DNA from: Escherichia coli O127:H6 str. E2348/69
GTDB taxonomy: Bacteria; Pseudomonadota; Gammaproteobacteria; Enterobacterales; Enterobacteriaceae
Strand: one strand, 5' to 3'
DNA length: 64,000 nucleotides
Assembly: GCF_000026545.1 (NCBI RefSeq)
Contig: NC_011601.1
Part shown: positions 2,788 through 60,077 of the stretch, in pieces
Numbering within the stretch: position 1 is the stretch's first letter
How the letters are laid out: each line of letters starts with the position of its first letter
Translations under genes and position numbers: made by a program
Notes under the pieces: generated by a model
The model's database searches: none
The model's input: only the letters and a program-made list of their open reading frames with translations
What the model was told of the DNA's origin: nothing

Positions 2788-3916
2788 ACTGAACGATCTT
2801 CTGACCACCCGTGAGCTACAACGCTGGCGATTAATTCTTGGCGAAGCGGCAGAAACGACGCTTTGTGGGCTGGATGACAACGCCCGGCAGATAGACCACG
2901 CGCTGGAGTGGCTGTATGGGCGCGATCCTGAACGGCTCCAGCGTGGTGAACGCTCTGGTGGATTAGGTGGCTCAAATCTCACCACCCCTGAGTGGATCAA
3001 CAGTATTCACACGCTGTTTCCGCAACGGGTGATCGAGCGGCTGGAAAGCGATGCCGTGCTGCGCTACGGCATTGAAGATGTGGTGACGAATCTCGACGTG
3101 CTGGAACGTATGCAGCCTTCTGAAAGCCTGCTACGCGCCGTTTTGCACACTAAACATCTGATGAATCCCGAAGTACTGGCTGCCGCCCGCCGGATAGTGC
3201 ACCAGGTTGTTGAAGAGATTATGGCGCGACTGGCAAAGGAAGTTCGTCAGGCTTTTTCTGGAGTACGCGATCGCCGTCGCCGCTCATTTATTCCACTGGC
3301 GCGAAACTTTGATTTCAAAAGTACTCTGCGCGCCAACCTGCAACACTGGCACCCGCAACACGGCAAGTTGTATATCGAATCCCCCCGCTTTAACAGCCGC
3401 ATTAAACGCCATAGCGAACAATGGCAACTGGTCCTACTGGTTGATCAAAGCGGATCAATGGTGGACTCGGTGATCCACTCCGCAGTGATGGCGGCCTGTT
3501 TATGGCAGTTACCCGGTATTCGTACCCATCTGGTGGCGTTTGACACCAGCGTCGTCGATCTCACGGCAGACGTTGTCGATCCGGTAGAATTATTAATGAA
3601 AGTGCAATTAGGCGGCGGGACCAATATCGCCAGTGCCGTGGAGTATGGTCGGCAACTTATTGAACAACCAGCGAAAAGCGTCATTATTCTCGTGAGCGAT
3701 TTTTATGAAGGTGGGTCATCATCATTGCTGACGCATCAGGTGAAAAAGTGTGTCCAGAGCGGCATCAAAGTGCTGGGGCTGGCAGCGCTCGACAGCACCG
3801 CAACGCCTTGCTATGACCGCGATATGGCCCAGGCGCTGGTTAATGTCGGCGCACAAATAGCCGCAATGACACCGGGCGAGCTGGCTTCCTGGCTTGCGGA
3901 GAATCTTCAGTCATGA
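2780..3916 (+). CDS. yehP: von Willebrand factor A (VWA) domain protein with a MIDAS motif
   Basis: ATG 2780 overlaps the yehM stop (ATGTCTGA); 378 aa; DQSGS motif at residues 222-226 (nt 3443-3457) sits after a hydrophobic strand (LVLLV), as expected for a MIDAS site. Confidence 0.85.
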   Translation: MSELNDLLTTRELQRWRLILGEAAETTLCGLDDNARQIDHALEWLYGRDPERLQRGERSGGLGGSNLTTPEWINSIHTLFPQRVIERLESDAVLRYGIEDVVTNLDVLERMQPSESLLRAVLHTKHLMNPEVLAAARRIVHQVVEEIMARLAKEVRQAFSGVRDRRRRSFIPLARNFDFKSTLRANLQHWHPQHGKLYIESPRFNSRIKRHSEQWQLVLLVDQSGSMVDSVIHSAVMAACLWQLPGIRTHLVAFDTSVVDLTADVVDPVELLMKVQLGGGTNIASAVEYGRQLIEQPAKSVIILVSDFYEGGSSSLLTHQVKKCVQSGIKVLGLAALDSTATPCYDRDMAQALVNVGAQIAAMTPGELASWLAENLQS

Positions 3917-7779: not shown

Positions 7780-9461
7780 GCCTCGTCCCTCCATGGTAGT
7801 CGTAACGTTATTCGGGTGTAACTATCAGGCTCACAGGCGACGCTTATCCCATAGTCATCGCCAAACCGTTCACGTAAACGCTTATCCACCAGATTCATCC
7901 CCAGCCCACTGGCATTGGTTACCGGTTGATACAAACCGGCATTGTCTTCGATCTCCAGCATCAAATGTTGCCCCTCACGTCGGGCGCTGATTGCCACTCG
8001 CCCTGTATCCAGCAGTTGTGATGTCCCATGTTTAATGGCGTTTTCCACTATCGGTTGCAGGGTAAACGCGGGCAATTGCTGCTGGGATAATTCTTGCGGA
8101 ATAGCAATGTTGACCTGCAACCGCGACTGGAAGCGCGCCTTTTCAATTTGCAGATAAGCGTTCACATGTTCAATTTCGTCGGCGAGAGTAACAAACTCCG
8201 AAGGCCGCTTTAAGTTTTTGCGGAAAAAAGTAGAAAGATACTGCACCAGCTGGCTGGCCTGTTCGCTGTCGCGGCGGATCACCGCTTTAATGGTGTTAAG
8301 CGCATTAAACAAAAAATGGGGATTCACCTGGGCGTGAAGCAGTTTGATCTCTGACTGGGTGAGCATCGCTTTTTGCCGCTCATATTGCCCGGCGAGGATC
8401 TGCGCCGAAAGCAGTTGCGCAATCCCCTCGCCCAGCGTGCGGTTGATTGAACTGAATAAACGGTTTTTGGCCTCATACAATTTGATGGTACCCATCACTC
8501 GCTGATTTTCACCACGCAACGGAATGACCAGCGTCGACCCCAGTTTGCATTGCGGATGCAAAGAGCAACGGTAAGGCACTTCGTTGCCATCAGCGTAGAC
8601 CACTTCACCGGTTTCAATCGCTTTTAAGGTATAAGTCGAAGAAATCGGTTTGCCGGGTAAATGGTGGTCGTCACCAATTCCGGTAAAGGCCAGCAATTTC
8701 TCTCGATCGGTAATCGCGACTGCACCAATATCCAGCTCCTGATACAGCACCTGTGCCACTTTCATGCTGTTCACTTCGTTAAACCCCTGGCGCAAAATGC
8801 CTTCCGTCGAGGCCGCCACTTTCAGCGCAGTGGCAGAAAAAGCCGAAGTGTATTTTTCAAACATCGCGCGTTTATCGAGCAATATACGCATAAACAGTGC
8901 CGCGCCGACGGTATTGGTGACCATCATTGGCGCAGCAATATTACTCACCAGACGCACCGCATCTTCATAAGGTCGGGCGATCGCCAGGATAATCAACATT
9001 TGCACCATTTCAGCGACGAACGTGACGGCACCGGCGGTAATGGGGTTAAAGACTTTATCAGTGCGCCCGCGACGGATCAGGATGCTGTGTACCATGCCAC
9101 CGAGCAATCCTTCAACGATGGTCGAGATCATGCAACTTAGCGCGGTCATGCCCCCCATCGAATATCGATGTAACCCGCCGGTCAGACCAACCAGCCCACC
9201 GACGACCGGACCGCCGAGTAAGCCGCCCATTACCGCACCTATCGCACGGGTATTGGCAATAGAATCGTCAATGTGCAACCCAAACCAGGTGCCCATGATG
9301 CAGAAGATGGAAAAGACGATGTAGCAGAGAAATTTATGCGGCAGACGAACCGTGACCTGCATTAACGGTATGAATAATGGCGTTTTACTCATTAACCACG
9401 CAATGACTAAAAAAACGCACATCTGCTGAAGCAGCAGCAACACCAGATTAAAATCGTACAT
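7776..9461 (-). CDS. btsS: LytS-type membrane sensor histidine kinase
   Basis: Multi-pass hydrophobic N-terminus followed by a histidine-kinase core; 561 aa from the Met giving [11 protein letters not shown]. Confidence 0.9.
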
Positions 9462-9682
9462 ACCCGCAAACCACACTTCCCTTTAAAACGCGTAACATAC
9501 ATTGCTTGCGTTTAACTTTCTTTGAACTCTTGCAGAAAAATGAGAATTCGTGAGTACGATCACTCAAAATCGCCTGGCAAAAATAAAATCACCCTATAGA
9601 TGCACAAAAAACAGGCAAAACTACCTGGTTCGCAAAACTGCGTCTAAAGTTAAACCGGGACCTCGCGAGCAAGGGTGAGACG

Positions 9683-10414
9683 ATGGCGCTTTACACAATT
9701 GGTGAAGTGGCGTTGCTTTGTGATATTAACCCTGTCACGTTACGCGCGTGGCAGAGGCGTTACGGATTGCTGAAACCGCAGCGGACAGACGGCGGTCATC
9801 GGCTGTTCAACGATGCCGATATTGACCGGATCCGCGAGATCAAACGCTGGATCGACAACGGTGTGCAGGTCAGCAAAGTAAAAATGCTGCTCAGTAATGA
9901 AAATGTTGATGTGCAGAACGGCTGGCGCGATCAGCAAGAAACATTACTGACTTACCTGCAAAGCGGCAATCTGCATAGCCTGCGAACGTGGATCAAAGAG
10001 CGCGGTCAGGATTACCCCGCCCAGACACTCACCACACATCTGTTTATTCCTCTGCGCCGACGGCTTCAGTGCCAACAACCGACTCTCCAGACGCTGCTGG
10101 CGATCCTCGACGGCGTACTGATCAACTACATCTCTATTTGCCTGGCTTCGGCGCGCAAAAAACAGGGTAAAGATGCACTGGTGGTTGGCTGGAATATTCA
10201 GGATACCACTCGTCTGTGGCTGGAGGGCTGGATTGCCAGTCAACAAGGATGGCGCATTGATGTCCTCGCCCACTCGCTCAATCAACTACGCCCTGAACTG
10301 TTCGAAGGCCGTACATTGCTGGTGTGGTGCGGTGATAATCGAACCTCCGCCCAACAACAGCAACTCACCCGTTGGCAGGAACAAGGCCATGATATTTTCC
10401 CACTCGGCATTTAA
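9683..10414 (+). CDS. mlrA: MerR-family transcriptional regulator
   Basis: N-terminal MerR-type helix-turn-helix (YTIGEVALLCDINPVTLRAWQRRYGLL); 243 aa. Confidence 0.9.
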   Translation: MALYTIGEVALLCDINPVTLRAWQRRYGLLKPQRTDGGHRLFNDADIDRIREIKRWIDNGVQVSKVKMLLSNENVDVQNGWRDQQETLLTYLQSGNLHSLRTWIKERGQDYPAQTLTTHLFIPLRRRLQCQQPTLQTLLAILDGVLINYISICLASARKKQGKDALVVGWNIQDTTRLWLEGWIASQQGWRIDVLAHSLNQLRPELFEGRTLLVWCGDNRTSAQQQQLTRWQEQGHDIFPLGI

Positions 10415-10473
10415 TGATTCGTTAACAAATGCGCTTTACTGTACAATCCTTTCGTTAACATAAGGAGTGCATT

Positions 10474-10581
10474 ATGCGCATAGCTAAAATTGGGGTCATC
10501 GCCCTGTTCCTGTTTATGGCGTTAGGCGGAATTGGTGGCGTCATGCTCGCAGGTTATACCTTTATTTTGCGTGCTGGCTGA
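10474..10581 (+). CDS. yohO: Small membrane protein, 35 aa
   Basis: ATG 10474 with AAGGAG at 10462-10467; single hydrophobic helix ([35 protein letters not shown]); below the ORF-track size cut-off; 3' end overlaps yehW on the opposite strand. Confidence 0.7.
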
Positions 10582-11293
10582 ACGCCTGCACCAGCCTTTC
10601 AAACAGGCGGTCTGCGATGATCGCCGCCAGTGCCACCAGTAACGCCCCCTGGATCACATACGCGGTATTAAATCCGCTAAGCCCGATGATGATCGGCGTA
10701 CCCAGCGTGCTGGCCCCTACCGTTGAGGCGATCGTCGCCGTGCCAATGTTGATAATCACCGAAGTTCGCACGCCCGCCAGAATCACCGGAGCTGCCAGCG
10801 GTAGCTCGACCTTACGCAGTCGCTGACTACAGCTCATTCCCATGCCTTTGGCAACTTCGGTCACGCTGGCATCAATCGATCCCAGCCCGGCAAGTGTCGC
10901 CTGCAGGACGGGCAGCACACCGTAAAGGATCAAGGCGATAATCGCCGGTTGCTGACCAAAGCCGATCACCGGAACGGCAATCGCCAGCACTGCAACGGGC
11001 GGAAAAGTCTGTCCAACGGCGGCAATAGTTTCCACCAGTGGACGAAATTCCGCGCCCCAAGGGCGAGTGACAGCAATTCCGGCACCAGTACCAATGATCA
11101 CCGCAAACAAACTCGAAATTCCCACCAGCCAGAAATGAGCCAGTGCCAGAGCTGCAAAGCTTTCCTGCTGATAAACGGGTCGTGGCAGTTGTGGGAACAA
11201 GGCAGCAAACAGCGGCTGGCTGTAAGGCAGCCAGAAAATCAGCGCCACAAACAGAGCAATCAGCCAGAACAGCGGATCGCGCAACATCTTCAT
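10562..11293 (-). CDS. yehW: ABC transporter permease (osmoprotectant-type)
   Basis: Hydrophobic multi-pass ORF of 243 aa; last gene of the osmF-yehYXW operon. Confidence 0.9.
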
Positions 11294-11297
11294 ACGA

Positions 11298-12224
11298 TTA
11301 CGCCTCCTCCAGCAGATCCTGAAAATGCAGCGTGCCGCAAGGCTCGCCCTGCGTGTTCACCACCGGCAGCACCTCGCATCCCCGCGCGACAAACAGAGAA
11401 AGCGCATCGCGTAGCGTCATCTCTTCTGCCAGCGCCTCACCTTCTGCCCGTTCTTCGCGACGCACGTAATCTGCCACGCTACGTAACGAAAGCAGGCGTA
11501 CACCCAGCTCACTACGACCAAAAAACTGGCGGACAAAATCATTCGCCGGACGAGTCAGCATCGTCAGCGGATTACCCTGCTGCACCACTTCACCGTGATC
11601 CATCAATACAAGATGTTCTGCCAGCCGTAGCGCCTCATCAATATCATGAGTGACCAGCACAATAGTGCGCCCCTGCAAACGGTGAATGCGCGTCATCTCT
11701 TGTTGCAACGCGCCACGCGTTACCGGGTCCAGCGCGCCGAATGGTTCATCCATCAGCAAGACTTGCGGATCGGCAGCCAGCGCGCGGGCCACTCCCACAC
11801 GTTGCTGCTGACCGCCGGAAAGCTGATGCGGATAACGCTCACGCAAATCCGGCTCCAGCCCCAGTAGCGCCATTAATTCGTCGATACGATCGTCGATCCG
11901 CGCCCGTGACCATTTTTGCAATTGCGGCACGGTGGCGATGTTTTGTGCCACGCTCCAGTGGGGAAACAGGCCAATAGATTGAATGGCATAGCCCATCCGG
12001 CGGCGCAACTCCAGTACTGGCAGCGAGCGAATTTCTTCTCCGGCAAAGCGGATCACCCCGCTGTCATGCTCCACCAGGCGGTTAATCATTTTCAGGGTAG
12101 TGGATTTACCGGAACCCGACGTGCCAATCAGTACCGAAAAACTCCCTTCCTGAAAATTGAGATTGAGATCGTTAACGGCTTTTTGTGCGCCGAACAGTTT
12201 GCTGACATGGCTAAATTCAATCAT
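11298..12224 (-). CDS. yehX: ABC transporter ATP-binding protein
   Basis: Walker [13 protein letters not shown] signature LSGGQQQR and Walker B LLMDEP are all present; 308 aa. Confidence 0.92.
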
Positions 12225-13374
12225 TACGTTTCACCTTCAGCAGTGCGATAAGCAAATCGAACAGCGCGTCGGTAAGCACCGCCAGAACAATTACCGGGAT
12301 CACCCCCAGCAACACTAAATCAATGGCACTGCTTAGCAGCCCCTGGAAAACCAGCGCACCAAAACCGCCTGCGCCGATTAACGCCGCAATCACCGCCATG
12401 CCAACGGTTTGTACCATCACCACCCGCAGGCTGTGCAGAAATACCGGTAACGCCAGCGGTAACTGAACATGCAGGAAACGCTGCACCCCGCTCATCCCCA
12501 TCGCTCTGGCGCTCTCCAGCACATCGCGCGGGATCTGGTTCAAGCCGACTACTACGCCGCGCACCAGCGGCAGCAAGGCATAGAGCACCAGCGCAATCAG
12601 TGCGGGTGTCATTCCGGTTCCTGCTATGCCGAGCATTCCCAGCCACGGAAAGGCCGTAACCAGCGCGGCAAGCGGCGCAATCAGCAGGCCAAAGAGCGCT
12701 ATCGAAGGCACGGTCTGAATGACATTCAGCAGAGAAAAAATCGCTCCCTGCCGCGCGGTGGAAAAGTAGCACCAGATGCCCAACGGCACACCAATCACTA
12801 ACGCAGGCAGCACCGCACCAAACAGCAACGTCAGATGTTGTGCCAGCGCGTCGTCAAACACATCCTGACGGTTGGCGTATTCTTTCATTAACGAGAGATC
12901 GTTAAGCGTGCCGGAGTACAGCAACCACAGCGGAATAATGGCAATCTGCATATGCAACAACCAGCGCCACAGCGGATGCGTGGAGATTCGGCGGATGGCA
13001 TCGCTACAGGCCAGCAGTGCCAGCGCCGCAGCCAGCCAGAAACCACTGCCGAGGCTGGTACGCGCCAGCGCACTGCCATTTTGCGCCAGTTGTGTCGCCG
13101 CCTTTCCAGCTCCCCACACCAGCAATACGAAGACGAATTGCGCCAGAATGAGTGCAAAAATGCTGCCTTTTTTAGCGGGAATAAAACAGGCTGTCAGCCA
13201 GGCGCAACCAACGCCCACCAGCATCCAGAGAGTTTGCGGCCACAGCTGCCAGAGATGACGCCCCTCACCCGAAACTAAACGATTAGGTGCGTAACTGATA
13301 AACGGCAGCGCCGCTGCGATTGCCGTCAGCAACAGCAGCAGCGCCAGAACAGGATTAATACGGAAATAAGTCAC
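12217..13374 (-). CDS. yehY: ABC transporter permease
   Basis: Hydrophobic multi-pass ORF of 385 aa; overlaps the yehX start by 8 nt. Confidence 0.9.
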
Positions 13375-13380
13375 GGGAAA

Positions 13381-14298
13381 TTACTTCGTCCACCCTTTTT
13401 GTTTCAGGTAGTCGGCTGCCACTTTTTTGGCATCCAGTCCTTCCACTGCAATGCTGGCATTCAGCTGCTGCAATGTTTTTTCATCGAGGCTGGCGAAGAC
13501 TGGCTGTAGCCACTGTGCTATTTGCGGATACTCTTTCAGCACCGACTCACGCACCACTGGCGCAGGCGCGTAGATAGGTTGCACGCCTTGCGGATCGCTT
13601 AAGGTTTGCAGCCCCAGCGCCGCAACCGGGCCGTCGGTGCCGTAAGCCATTGCGGCATTAACACCAGAAGTTTGCTGGGCAGCGGCTTTGATCGTCACCG
13701 CCGTGTCACCACCGGCCAGTGACAGCAACTGATCCTGACCGAGCTTAAAGCCATAGGCTTTTTCAAACGCGGGTAAGGCATCGGCACGTTCGATAAACTC
13801 TGCCGAGGCTGCCAGTTTGAAGTTGCCACCCTCTTTCAGATAACGACTCAGCTCGGCAAGCGAAGTGAGTTTGTTTTTCTCTGCCACATCCTGACGCACG
13901 GCGATGGTCCAAGTGTTATTTGCAGGCGCGGGCGTCAGCCAGATTAACTTGTTTTGCTCTGCATCGAGTTTTTTGACTTTCTCATAGCCTTGCTGCGCGT
14001 TTTTCCATGCCGTATCGTTTTCATCTTTAAAGAAAAACGCGCCATTGCCAGTATATTCCGGATAGATATCCAGCTCGCCAGAAGTGATCGCCCCGCGCAC
14101 TACGGGAGTCGTTCCCAGCTGCACTTTATTTACCGTAGGAACGCCGTGACTTTCCAGCACCTGCAAAATGATATTGCCGAGCAGCGCGCCTTCCGTATCG
14201 ATTTTTGAACCAACCTTAACGGGGGAAGCCGCCTGTAGCGGCAGGCTCACGGCTGCCAACAAAACCAGTGAACCTGCCCAGAGCTTTGAGAGTGGCAT
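13381..14298 (-). CDS. osmF: Periplasmic glycine-betaine-type substrate-binding protein
   Basis: Signal peptide MPLSKLWAGSLVLLAAVSLPLQA; 305 aa; first gene of the transporter operon. Confidence 0.9.
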   Translation of the reverse strand: MPLSKLWAGSLVLLAAVSLPLQAASPVKVGSKIDTEGALLGNIILQVLESHGVPTVNKVQLGTTPVVRGAITSGELDIYPEYTGNGAFFFKDENDTAWKNAQQGYEKVKKLDAEQNKLIWLTPAPANNTWTIAVRQDVAEKNKLTSLAELSRYLKEGGNFKLAASAEFIERADALPAFEKAYGFKLGQDQLLSLAGGDTAVTIKAAAQQTSGVNAAMAYGTDGPVAALGLQTLSDPQGVQPIYAPAPVVRESVLKEYPQIAQWLQPVFASLDEKTLQQLNASIAVEGLDAKKVAADYLKQKGWTK

Positions 14299-23769: not shown

Positions 23770-23853
23770 ATGAAAATTATACTCTGGGCTGTATTGATTA
23801 TTTTCCTGATTGGGCTACTGGTGGTGACTGGCGTATTTAAGATGATATTTTAA
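23770..23853 (+). CDS. yohP: Small membrane protein, 27 aa
   Basis: ATG 23770; MKIILWAVLIIFLIGLLVVTGVFKMIF is a single hydrophobic helix; below the ORF-track cut-off. Confidence 0.7.
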   Translation: MKIILWAVLIIFLIGLLVVTGVFKMIF

Positions 23854-58644: not shown

Positions 58645-59826
58645 ATGCATAACTCCCCCGCAGTCACCAGCGCGAAATCGTTTGACCTGACCTCGATGGC
58701 GTTTTTAATCGTTGCCTTTCTCACCGGTATTGCGGGCGCTCTGCAAACCCCGACACTCAGTATTTTTCTTACTGATGAAGTACATGCCCGTCCGGCGATG
58801 GTGGGATTCTTCTTTACCGGCAGCGCAGTCATTGGGATTCTGGTGAGTCAGTTTCTCGCCGGGCGCTCTGATAAGCGCGGCGATCGCAAATCGCTGATTG
58901 TCTTTTGCTGCCTGTTAGGCGTGCTGGCCTGCACCCTTTTTGCCTGGAATCGCAACTACTTTGTTTTGCTATTCGTTGGCGTCTTTCTTAGCAGCTTTGG
59001 CTCGACCGCTAACCCGCAAATGTTTGCCCTTGCCCGTGAACATGCCGACAAAACCGGACGTGAGGCGGTGATGTTCAGCTCTTTTTTACGCGCTCAGGTT
59101 TCACTGGCATGGGTCATTGGCCCACCGCTGGCTTATGCCTTAGCGATGGGTTTCAACTTTACGGTAATGTATCTGAGCGCAGCGGTAGCGTTTATTGTTT
59201 GCGGCGTGATGGTGTGGCTGTTTTTGCCGTCGATGCAAAAAGAGCTTCCGCTGGCGACCGGCACGGTTGAAGCGCCGCGCCGTAACCGTCGCGATACGTT
59301 GCTGCTGTTTGTCATTTGTACATTGATGTGGGGCTCGAACAGCCTGTACATCATCAACATGCCGCTATTTATTATCAACGAACTGCATCTTCCCGAGAAA
59401 CTGGCCGGTGTGATGATGGGGACCGCCGCCGGGCTGGAAATCCCGACCATGTTGATTGCCGGATATTTTGCCAAACGTCTAGGTAAGCGCTTCTTAATGC
59501 GCGTTGCTGCCGTGGGTGGCGTCTGTTTTTACGCAGGAATGCTGATGGCGCATTCACCTGTCATTCTGTTGGGCTTGCAGCTGCTAAATGCTATTTTTAT
59601 TGGCATTCTGGGCGGCATCGGGATGCTCTATTTTCAGGATTTGATGCCCGGTCAGGCAGGTTCAGCCACCACGCTCTATACCAACACGTCGCGCGTGGGC
59701 TGGATCATCGCAGGATCAGTGGCGGGCATCGTCGCCGAGATCTGGAATTATCACGCTGTGTTCTGGTTTGCGATGGTGATGATTATCGCCACTCTGTTTT
59801 GCTTACTGCGAATTAAAGATGTTTAA
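58645..59826 (+). CDS. setB: Sugar efflux transporter (major facilitator superfamily)
   Basis: 393 aa with about 12 hydrophobic segments. Confidence 0.88.
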
Positions 59827-60077
59827 GGCGCGGTCAGCATTTCCAGATCGATAAGCCAGGTCATTGCCTGCTGACGCGAGTTACCGCACATTTCAGCGCT
59901 GGCTTGTAAGCCTGCACAGACTTTCGGTCGCAGTGGCGAGGTGAAAATTTTACAGCGTTGCTGTTCATCAAGCTGAATGCAGGGCGTATTGGCGGGCTTG
60001 CCATCTGGCATACCGGGAATAGGGCTGGAAATTGAAGGGGCAGTGCAACACGCCCCGCAACCCGGACGGCATTCCAT
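59823..60077 (-). CDS. yeiW: Small cysteine-rich protein (UPF0153-like)
   Basis: 84 aa from [14 protein letters not shown], with 9 cysteines; its stop shares the TTAA palindrome with the setB stop. Confidence 0.7.

Follow-up and report, generated by a model that had tools for sequence, protein, structure and literature searches.

The tail-to-tail coding overlap of yohO and yehW is retained across genera and forms part of a longer antisense transcript overlap

The excludon concept has its origin in work on Listeria and Staphylococcus. Convergent excludons of E. coli are opposite-strand neighbours whose transcripts overlap at their 3′ ends, and yohO-yehW is one of the 165 such pairs that ExcludonFinder lists for strain MG1655 (Sanmartin et al., NAR 2025, PMC12288877). 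The pair resembles the class in both respects, and its lack of any spacer fits the short intergenic distances reported for excludons (PMC12288877). However, the defining outcome of an excludon is that one partner suppresses the other, whereas yohO-yehW was assigned by transcript overlap alone. It also differs in that coding sequence of both genes, and not UTRs only, lies in the overlap, and in that its partners have no known opposing functions and are flanked by RpoS-dependent genes on both sides. The transcript overlap that places a pair among excludons is seen here in published Term-seq data, in Table 1 of ExcludonFinder and in a Klebsiella tiling array; in the functional sense the pair is a putative member.

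Rho-terminated transcripts with hairpin-protected 3′ ends are a second described group (Adams et al. 2021, eLife). The yohO transcript is alike in ending 3′ of a GC-rich hairpin that has no U tract and in having a bicyclomycin-sensitive region about 180 nt downstream of that end. In contrast to this group, the origin of the yohO end by trimming is our supposition.

Small membrane proteins that modulate transporters offer a third comparison: KdpF acts with KdpABC, AcrZ with AcrB and MgtS with MgtA. YohO shares with them a length below 50 aa, a single helix, a conserved glycine-rich face and a gene invariably found beside transporter genes. The genes of KdpF, AcrZ and MgtS are co-transcribed with the partner or encoded elsewhere, whereas yohO is convergent with its neighbour and overlaps it; and while those proteins bind their transporters, the tie between YohO and YehZYXW is known from gene adjacency alone (86 of 86 loci).

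The locus studied here lies in a stretch of 64,000 nt from E. coli O127:H6 str. E2348/69 (NC_011601.1), which we call the window. The gene order is btsSR, then mlrA and yohO on the plus strand, then yehW-yehX-yehY-osmF on the minus strand:

9683-10414, plus strand: mlrA, a MerR-type, RpoS-dependent regulator directly upstream of yohO
10474-10581, plus strand: yohO CDS, 35 aa, ATG start, TGA stop at 10579-10581 (WP_001216963.1)
10562-10581, both strands: overlap segment of 20 nt, dual-coding according to the sequence and the ORF list
10562-11293, minus strand: yehW CDS, 243 aa, TAA stop at 10562-10564, last gene of the osmF operon
11298-12224, minus strand: yehX, operon member
12217-13374, minus strand: yehY, operon member
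13381-14298, minus strand: osmF, operon member

The preliminary description had reported a 20-nt overlap of yohO with the end of yehW, and both the ORF list and the RefSeq annotation reproduce it at 10562-10581 on the two strands. Read on the plus strand, the segment gives part of F30 of YohO followed by I-L-R-A-G-stop; read on the minus strand, part of an F of YehW followed by S-Q-H-A-K-stop. The frames are set so that codon position 1 of yohO faces position 1 of yehW, position 2 faces 3 and position 3 faces 2. YehW is a permease of the OsmF-YehYXW glycine betaine ABC transporter, with the Pfam domain BPD_transp_1 over residues 68-238; since the domain ends at residue 238, the overlap covers solely the 5-6 residues beyond it. 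The label of osmoprotectant transporter used in the earlier account is outdated, as the title of Lang et al. 2015 speaks of a low-affinity, non-osmoregulatory system. The CDS pair and its overlap are identical in RefSeq for E. coli E2348/69, NZ_CP059840.2 (compared stretch 10300-10900, 100% identity), and the locus was found in 5423 of 5426 complete E. coli genomes. The overlap is thus already known, from RefSeq and as a published excludon candidate, and the original observation adds nothing to the annotation of E. coli or to the excludon catalogue. What is new here, as far as we found, is that the overlap, with its dual coding constraint, is retained throughout the family, and that yohO is strictly linked to yehW.

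Convergent CDS overlaps are not rare in the window, where two of ten convergent pairs overlap. The second is formed by setB (58645-59826, plus strand) and yeiW (59823-60077, minus strand), which share 4 nt at 59823-59826 and likewise appear in the ExcludonFinder list (PMC12288877). Both pairs have stops inside the partner's final codons, on opposite strands, and neither has an intergenic terminator region. At 20 nt, and as many as 26 nt in some other genera, the yohO-yehW overlap is longer than the 4 nt of setB-yeiW; it subjects 5-6 sense codons in each of the two genes to dual constraint and is kept at 86 of 86 loci.

An ORF of merely 35 codons, for which our local copy of Pfam-A contains no matching model, raises the question of whether yohO is a genuine gene, or whether the yehW stop was mis-called, in which case the overlap would be meaningless. 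The evidence refutes such an annotation artefact, and we give it practically no credence. The ORF has an ATG and a strong Shine-Dalgarno sequence, and over 80 species its entropies at codon positions 1, 2 and 3 are 0.44, 0.20 and 1.07, a pattern typical of coding sequence. The protein matches the NCBIfam equivalog NF010225 ("protein YohO") with 80.1 bits against a cutoff of 57, over positions 1-35 of 35, and the Pfam family PF27791 (UPF0387_membrane) is on record for its homologues at divergent loci. YohO was seen by top-down mass spectrometry (PMC12529367), and yohO has Ribo-seq coverage in the correct frame, with Hemm 2008 cited for the gene. The yehW stop, for its part, is the first in-frame stop. 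The pair therefore consists of two genuine CDSs that share their 3′ nucleotides, both with coding-type conservation and one with a detected product, a single-helix small membrane protein. Two further records concern yohO itself. An RNA-seq study of Shigella flexneri gives it a value of -2.96 among anaerobiosis-influenced genes, a list from which yehW and osmF are absent (PMC4229854), and the gene turned up in a first-round overexpression screen for alanine export.

To follow the overlap across genomes, one genome per species was scanned with YehW as the query, which yielded 80 loci from Escherichia, Citrobacter, Salmonella, Enterobacter, Klebsiella, Kosakonia, Lelliottia, Leclercia, Buttiauxella, Cedecea, Pluralibacter and other genera; the 6 loci of the most divergent YohO homologues brought the set to 86. 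A yohO orthologue converges on yehW with a CDS overlap at 80 of 80 species loci, and the overlap measures 17, 20 or 26 nt at all 86. With 20 nt, YohO has 35 aa and YehW 243 aa; with 26 nt, YohO has 37 aa (...FIVRGGVG) and YehW 245 aa (...SRHRREQ); the 17-nt class comprises two species, whose YohO has 34 aa. The 20- and 26-nt classes are separated by a 6-nt indel within the overlap that adds two residues to both proteins. All six loci of the most divergent YohO homologues keep the overlap, at a YehW identity of 67-68% to the E. coli protein, and in the two truly divergent YohO relatives a 20-nt overlap with a yehW-type permease gene persists. An open extension of 6 codons is by itself not statistically surprising, but its retention across 86 loci exceeds chance. 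A YehW search for distant orthologues lacking yohO returned close relatives only.

What lies upstream of yohO is less stable. The mlrA gene adjoins it in 74 of 80 species and is missing in the other 6, with no effect on the overlap, and at the divergent loci its place is taken by metG, an ArsR-like gene or a TonB-dependent receptor. Since yohO stays with yehW while its upstream gene changes, it is linked to yehW and not to mlrA.

One genome of the 80, Citrobacter amalonaticus AUH_CA_2023_1, has a disrupted 5′ part of yohO (locus L007, ~3790-3825), where an extra A in a GCGAAA run causes a frameshift; neither the 3′ part nor the 20-nt overlap is affected. This may be a sequencing error or a pseudogene.

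The linkage invites the hypothesis of a functional partnership, in which YohO would be a dedicated peptide with an accessory or regulatory role for the YehZYXW betaine transporter, the overlap being incidental to the linkage. We regard this as tentative and, on balance, unlikely. It would account for the presence of yohO at the yehW 3′ end in 86 of 86 loci while the upstream neighbour varies (mlrA, metG or ArsR-like genes, a TonB-dependent receptor, or none). The YohO family is narrow, with 17 cluster representatives, mostly of frameshifted copies, among 1.84 billion representative proteins in an exhaustive search, and the divergent members checked all sit at the yehW locus. Its most conserved part is a glycine-rich helix-packing motif of 11 residues, and the common 6-nt indel alters both C-termini together. 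On the other hand, the literature examined holds no interaction or phenotype data for YohO, and subunits of one complex are not usually encoded convergently. The Klebsiella yohO transcript belongs to the exponential phase, in a region with RpoD-binding data (PMC3536570), while the E. coli operon is RpoS-dependent. Moreover, the overlap alone could explain the linkage, as any recombination breakpoint that separated the genes would damage one of them, and co-occurrence was sampled only down to about 67% YehW identity. The strict linkage is a modest lead, which makes the YehZYXW betaine transporter the first place to look for a function of YohO.

Within the overlap itself, the yehW stop depends on two codons of yohO:

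10561-10566, plus strand: YohO codons 30-31 (TTT ATT, Phe-Ile), of which bases 2-4, when reverse-complemented, give the yehW stop

All intact sequences tabulated have T at position 2 of codon 30 and A at position 1 of codon 31, with T or C at position 3 of codon 30; the minus strand therefore reads TAA or TGA, be residue 30 F, V or L. Variation in the overlap follows the periodicity of yohO, with entropies of 0.04, 0.08 and 0.74 at codon positions 1, 2 and 3 in the 26-nt class. Some third positions of yohO are nevertheless nearly frozen (33.3 is T in 34 of 34 sequences; 34.3, 35.3 and 37.3 are fixed in 42 of 44), and these are the second codon positions of conserved Ser and His residues of YehW. 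We infer from these patterns that the last 5-6 residues of both YohO and YehW are under purifying selection. With both C-termini conserved, neither stop can move out of the partner gene without truncating a conserved tail. Constraint at the protein level could then, judging by the alignments, be enough to keep the overlap, and regulation need not be invoked. Retention could also be compatible with selection for the antisense relationship, which is inseparable here from protein constraint.

The part of yehW that lies under the yohO 3′ UTR was considered separately. Synonymous-site variability over the last 20 yehW codons before the overlap is 1.26, against a gene average of 1.28 (rank 109 of 217 windows), and a conserved RNA element in the yohO 3′ UTR thus finds no support.

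Upstream of yohO lie two conserved elements:

10442-10447, plus strand: likely -10 hexamer of the gene's own promoter, TACAAT here and TATAAT in most genera
10462-10467, plus strand: Shine-Dalgarno sequence AAGGAG, 6 nt before the ATG, its AGGAG core kept in the large majority of aligned upstream regions

Among 64 distinct upstream regions that were aligned, the hexamer is conserved, including at loci without mlrA, where the Shine-Dalgarno sequence is kept too; by the conservation of the hexamer, yohO likely has a sigma-70-like promoter of its own. The -35 element is ambiguous: the near-consensus candidate TTAACA lies only 14 bp from the -10 and its spacing is not conserved. The SMRT-Cappable-seq supplements contain no entry for yohO. 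A palindrome of the form TTAATG-nnn-CATTAA (TTAATGATTCGTTAA here) spans the mlrA stop at 10411-10425, some 17 nt before the -10 hexamer. Different genera share it, even at several loci without mlrA, and it may bind a transcription factor or belong to the promoter. The start region of yohO, ATGCGCAT at 10474-10481, is self-complementary, and its ATGCGC is repeated at 10429-10434. In the minus-strand fold, the complements of both ATGCGC copies and a UCCUU/AAGGA pair form one hairpin. It is a matter of speculation that equivalent pairing on the plus strand could sequester the yohO Shine-Dalgarno sequence in transcripts that read through from mlrA, and that this predicted pairing would lose its 5′ arm in transcripts started at the yohO promoter.

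It is at the 3′ ends that the two transcripts meet:

10606-10625, plus strand: hairpin GGCGGUC-UGCGAU-GAUCGCC, present in MFE and centroid folds, without a U tract, antisense to yehW codons
10630, plus strand: mapped 3′ end of the yohO transcript, directly after the hairpin, 49 nt beyond the yohO stop and 69 nt inside yehW
10631-10812, plus strand: stretch of Rho-dependent termination, with a peak near 10812, about 230 nt past the yohO stop and about 180 nt past the 3′ end

Because each mRNA must carry its own stop codon, complementarity of at least 20 nt is unavoidable, and it is impossible for mRNAs that encode the full-length proteins to end, both of them, before the overlap. Published data extend this minimum. 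In the Term-seq data for E. coli MG1655, a 3′ end at 2215813 on the plus strand carries the label primary with respect to yohO and antisense with respect to yehW (Adams et al. 2021, PMC7815308). It appears in at least two of the three condition sheets (PMC7815308), with read counts of 861 and 1115, the sheets being read by us as LB at OD 0.4 and OD 2.0. Its placement at 10630 assumes that the 61-nt entry consists of 50 nt upstream, the end itself and 10 nt downstream, as we deduced, whereas the caption gives 40 upstream and 10 downstream. The same work reports a bicyclomycin-sensitive, that is, Rho-dependent, region on the plus strand, antisense to yehW, with its peak at 2215995 (Rho score 5.6, p = 9e-16; Adams 2021, PMC7815308). 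For the minus strand, no 3′ end of the yehW/osmF operon was found in the E. coli Term-seq tables (PMC7815308).

In K. pneumoniae MGH 78578, tiling arrays detected an 800-nt plus-strand transcript in exponential phase (2810932-2811731) that covers 92.4% of yehW and serves in that paper as an example of antisense RNA against yehW (PMC3536570). Its 37-aa ORF at 2810962-2811075 is yohO, so that the transcript starts about 30 nt upstream of the ORF. The whole transcript is covered by a minus-strand operon transcript at 2810882-2814821 (PMC3536570). The E. coli and Klebsiella data together indicate that the two transcripts overlap far beyond the 20 nt that the coding sequences share. Antisense pairing at the 3′ ends had been claimed before, and the complementarity of the two mRNAs is borne out by the Term-seq end, the Rho region, ExcludonFinder and the Klebsiella transcripts; the antisense transcript overlap of yohO and yehW is, on these published data, established. 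The locus belongs among convergent overlapping pairs whose transcripts are ended by Rho inside the partner gene.

A bidirectional intrinsic terminator was considered and rejected: a scan of both strands over 10500-10700 found no terminator-like site, folds of the overlap region on both strands were no better than shuffled sequence (z = -1.05 and -0.50), and the hairpin at 10606-10625 lacks a U tract. A known RNA family was likewise discarded, the Rfam scan of 9300-11500 having returned no family and just two sub-threshold chance matches. Downstream of both stops C exceeds G (C/G 1.4-1.7, around the 90th percentile of the window), and in the plus-strand RNA of 10631-10812 the ratio is 1.0-1.7. 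Such C-rich RNA past both stops may be suggestive of Rho loading, with which it is compatible, and it is not distinctive. As the genes have neither a spacer between them nor an intrinsic terminator for either transcript, transcription of each is bound to proceed into its partner.

The question is then whether this reading into each other amounts to mutually exclusive expression, as had been proposed for the small membrane protein and the transporter. In a true excludon, the 3′ regions would act as reciprocal cis-antisense regulators, through transcriptional interference and RNase III cleavage of the duplex, and a cell would express either YohO or OsmF-YehYXW. The pair belongs to the E. coli excludome in at least 50% of 58 RNA-seq samples, and for excludon pairs in general, co-expression within a single cell is rare (PMC12288877). 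The documented transcript overlap (69 nt or more in E. coli, some 800 nt in Klebsiella), the absence of intrinsic terminators and the family-wide conservation of the arrangement would all agree with this reading. However, any transcribed pair of overlapping CDSs satisfies the coverage criterion of ExcludonFinder automatically, and validation by p19 capture of dsRNA was "not feasible" for convergent excludons in E. coli (PMC12288877). Both transcripts occur together in bulk cultures, as in the exponential-phase culture of Klebsiella (PMC3536570), and in E. coli the yohO 3′ end shows up on at least two of the condition sheets (PMC7815308). Co-detection in bulk describes the population only and would be compatible with exclusion from cell to cell. 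The partners have no opposing function, and yehW shows no extra synonymous constraint under the yohO 3′ UTR, a point of limited weight because antisense pairing needs none.

The regulation of the neighbourhood also speaks against exclusion. The osmF gene has been described as belonging to the RpoS-dependent core. According to Table S1 of PMC10654073, yehW, yehX, yehY and osmF are RpoS-dependent; for yehW the dependence is seen in stationary phase, at high osmolarity and in the cold, and for mlrA in stationary phase and in the cold (Table S1, PMC10654073). The product of mlrA belongs to the RpoS-MlrA-CsgD cascade, and transcription of mlrA may likewise reach into the overlap. As mlrA and osmF-yehYXW both depend on RpoS, the two sides are co-induced at the population level and not opposed. 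Taken together, we consider it improbable that yohO-yehW works as a true excludon.

The reading we favour, and hold to be reasonably probable, is that of a compact tail-to-tail pair of real genes whose overlap is held in place by protein-level constraint, with Rho-limited antisense read-through and graded dampening at most. The yehW stop is the reverse complement of bases in YohO codons 30-31, and the conserved C-termini would lock both stops where they are. A yohO transcript, likely from its own sigma-70-like promoter, continues antisense into yehW until it is stopped by Rho, as the Term-seq and bicyclomycin data for E. coli show. It would presumably be trimmed back to the hairpin 49 nt past the stop; a trimming model for Rho-terminated transcripts was reportedly put forward by Dar and Sorek in 2018. 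The osmF-yehYXW transcript runs antisense through yohO in Klebsiella and probably does the same in E. coli. With both units active, head-on encounters of polymerases and an RNA duplex of at least 69 bp would be possible. In our judgement, the most likely effect of the overlap is graded reciprocal dampening at most, and not on/off exclusion. The attachment of yohO to yehW, whatever gene lies upstream, would in addition suggest that YohO is functionally tied to the transporter. Lacking intrinsic terminators, the locus is a natural test case for whether an overlap is kept by protein constraint or by antisense selection.

A further hypothesis joins the two kinds of action in an ancient module locked across the family: the yohO mRNA would be bifunctional, encoding a helix-packing peptide that acts on YehZYXW, while its Rho-limited 3′ extension would target, as a cis-antisense RNA, the 3′ end of osmF-yehYXW. 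We consider it decidedly doubtful. If true, one transporter would be controlled at the protein level and at the RNA level from a single 35-codon gene.

Some observations on the surroundings are recorded here. At the very start of mlrA, at 9687-9709, there is a terminator-like hairpin with a T-rich tail, and a Term-seq 3′ end 38 nt into the mlrA ORF (MG1655 2214904, about 9721 in the window) coincides with it (Adams et al. 2021, PMC7815308). The hairpin and the 3′ end may reflect premature termination or attenuation of the mRNA of this curli regulator. In a genomic SELEX study of minor sigma factors, a holoenzyme peak at the old MG1655 coordinate 2214150, annotated between yohO and yehX, falls inside yehW (~10600-11300 in the window) (PMC5493296). 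Another small membrane protein gene of the window, yohP (27 aa, 23770-23853), is convergent with dusC across a gap of 387 nt.
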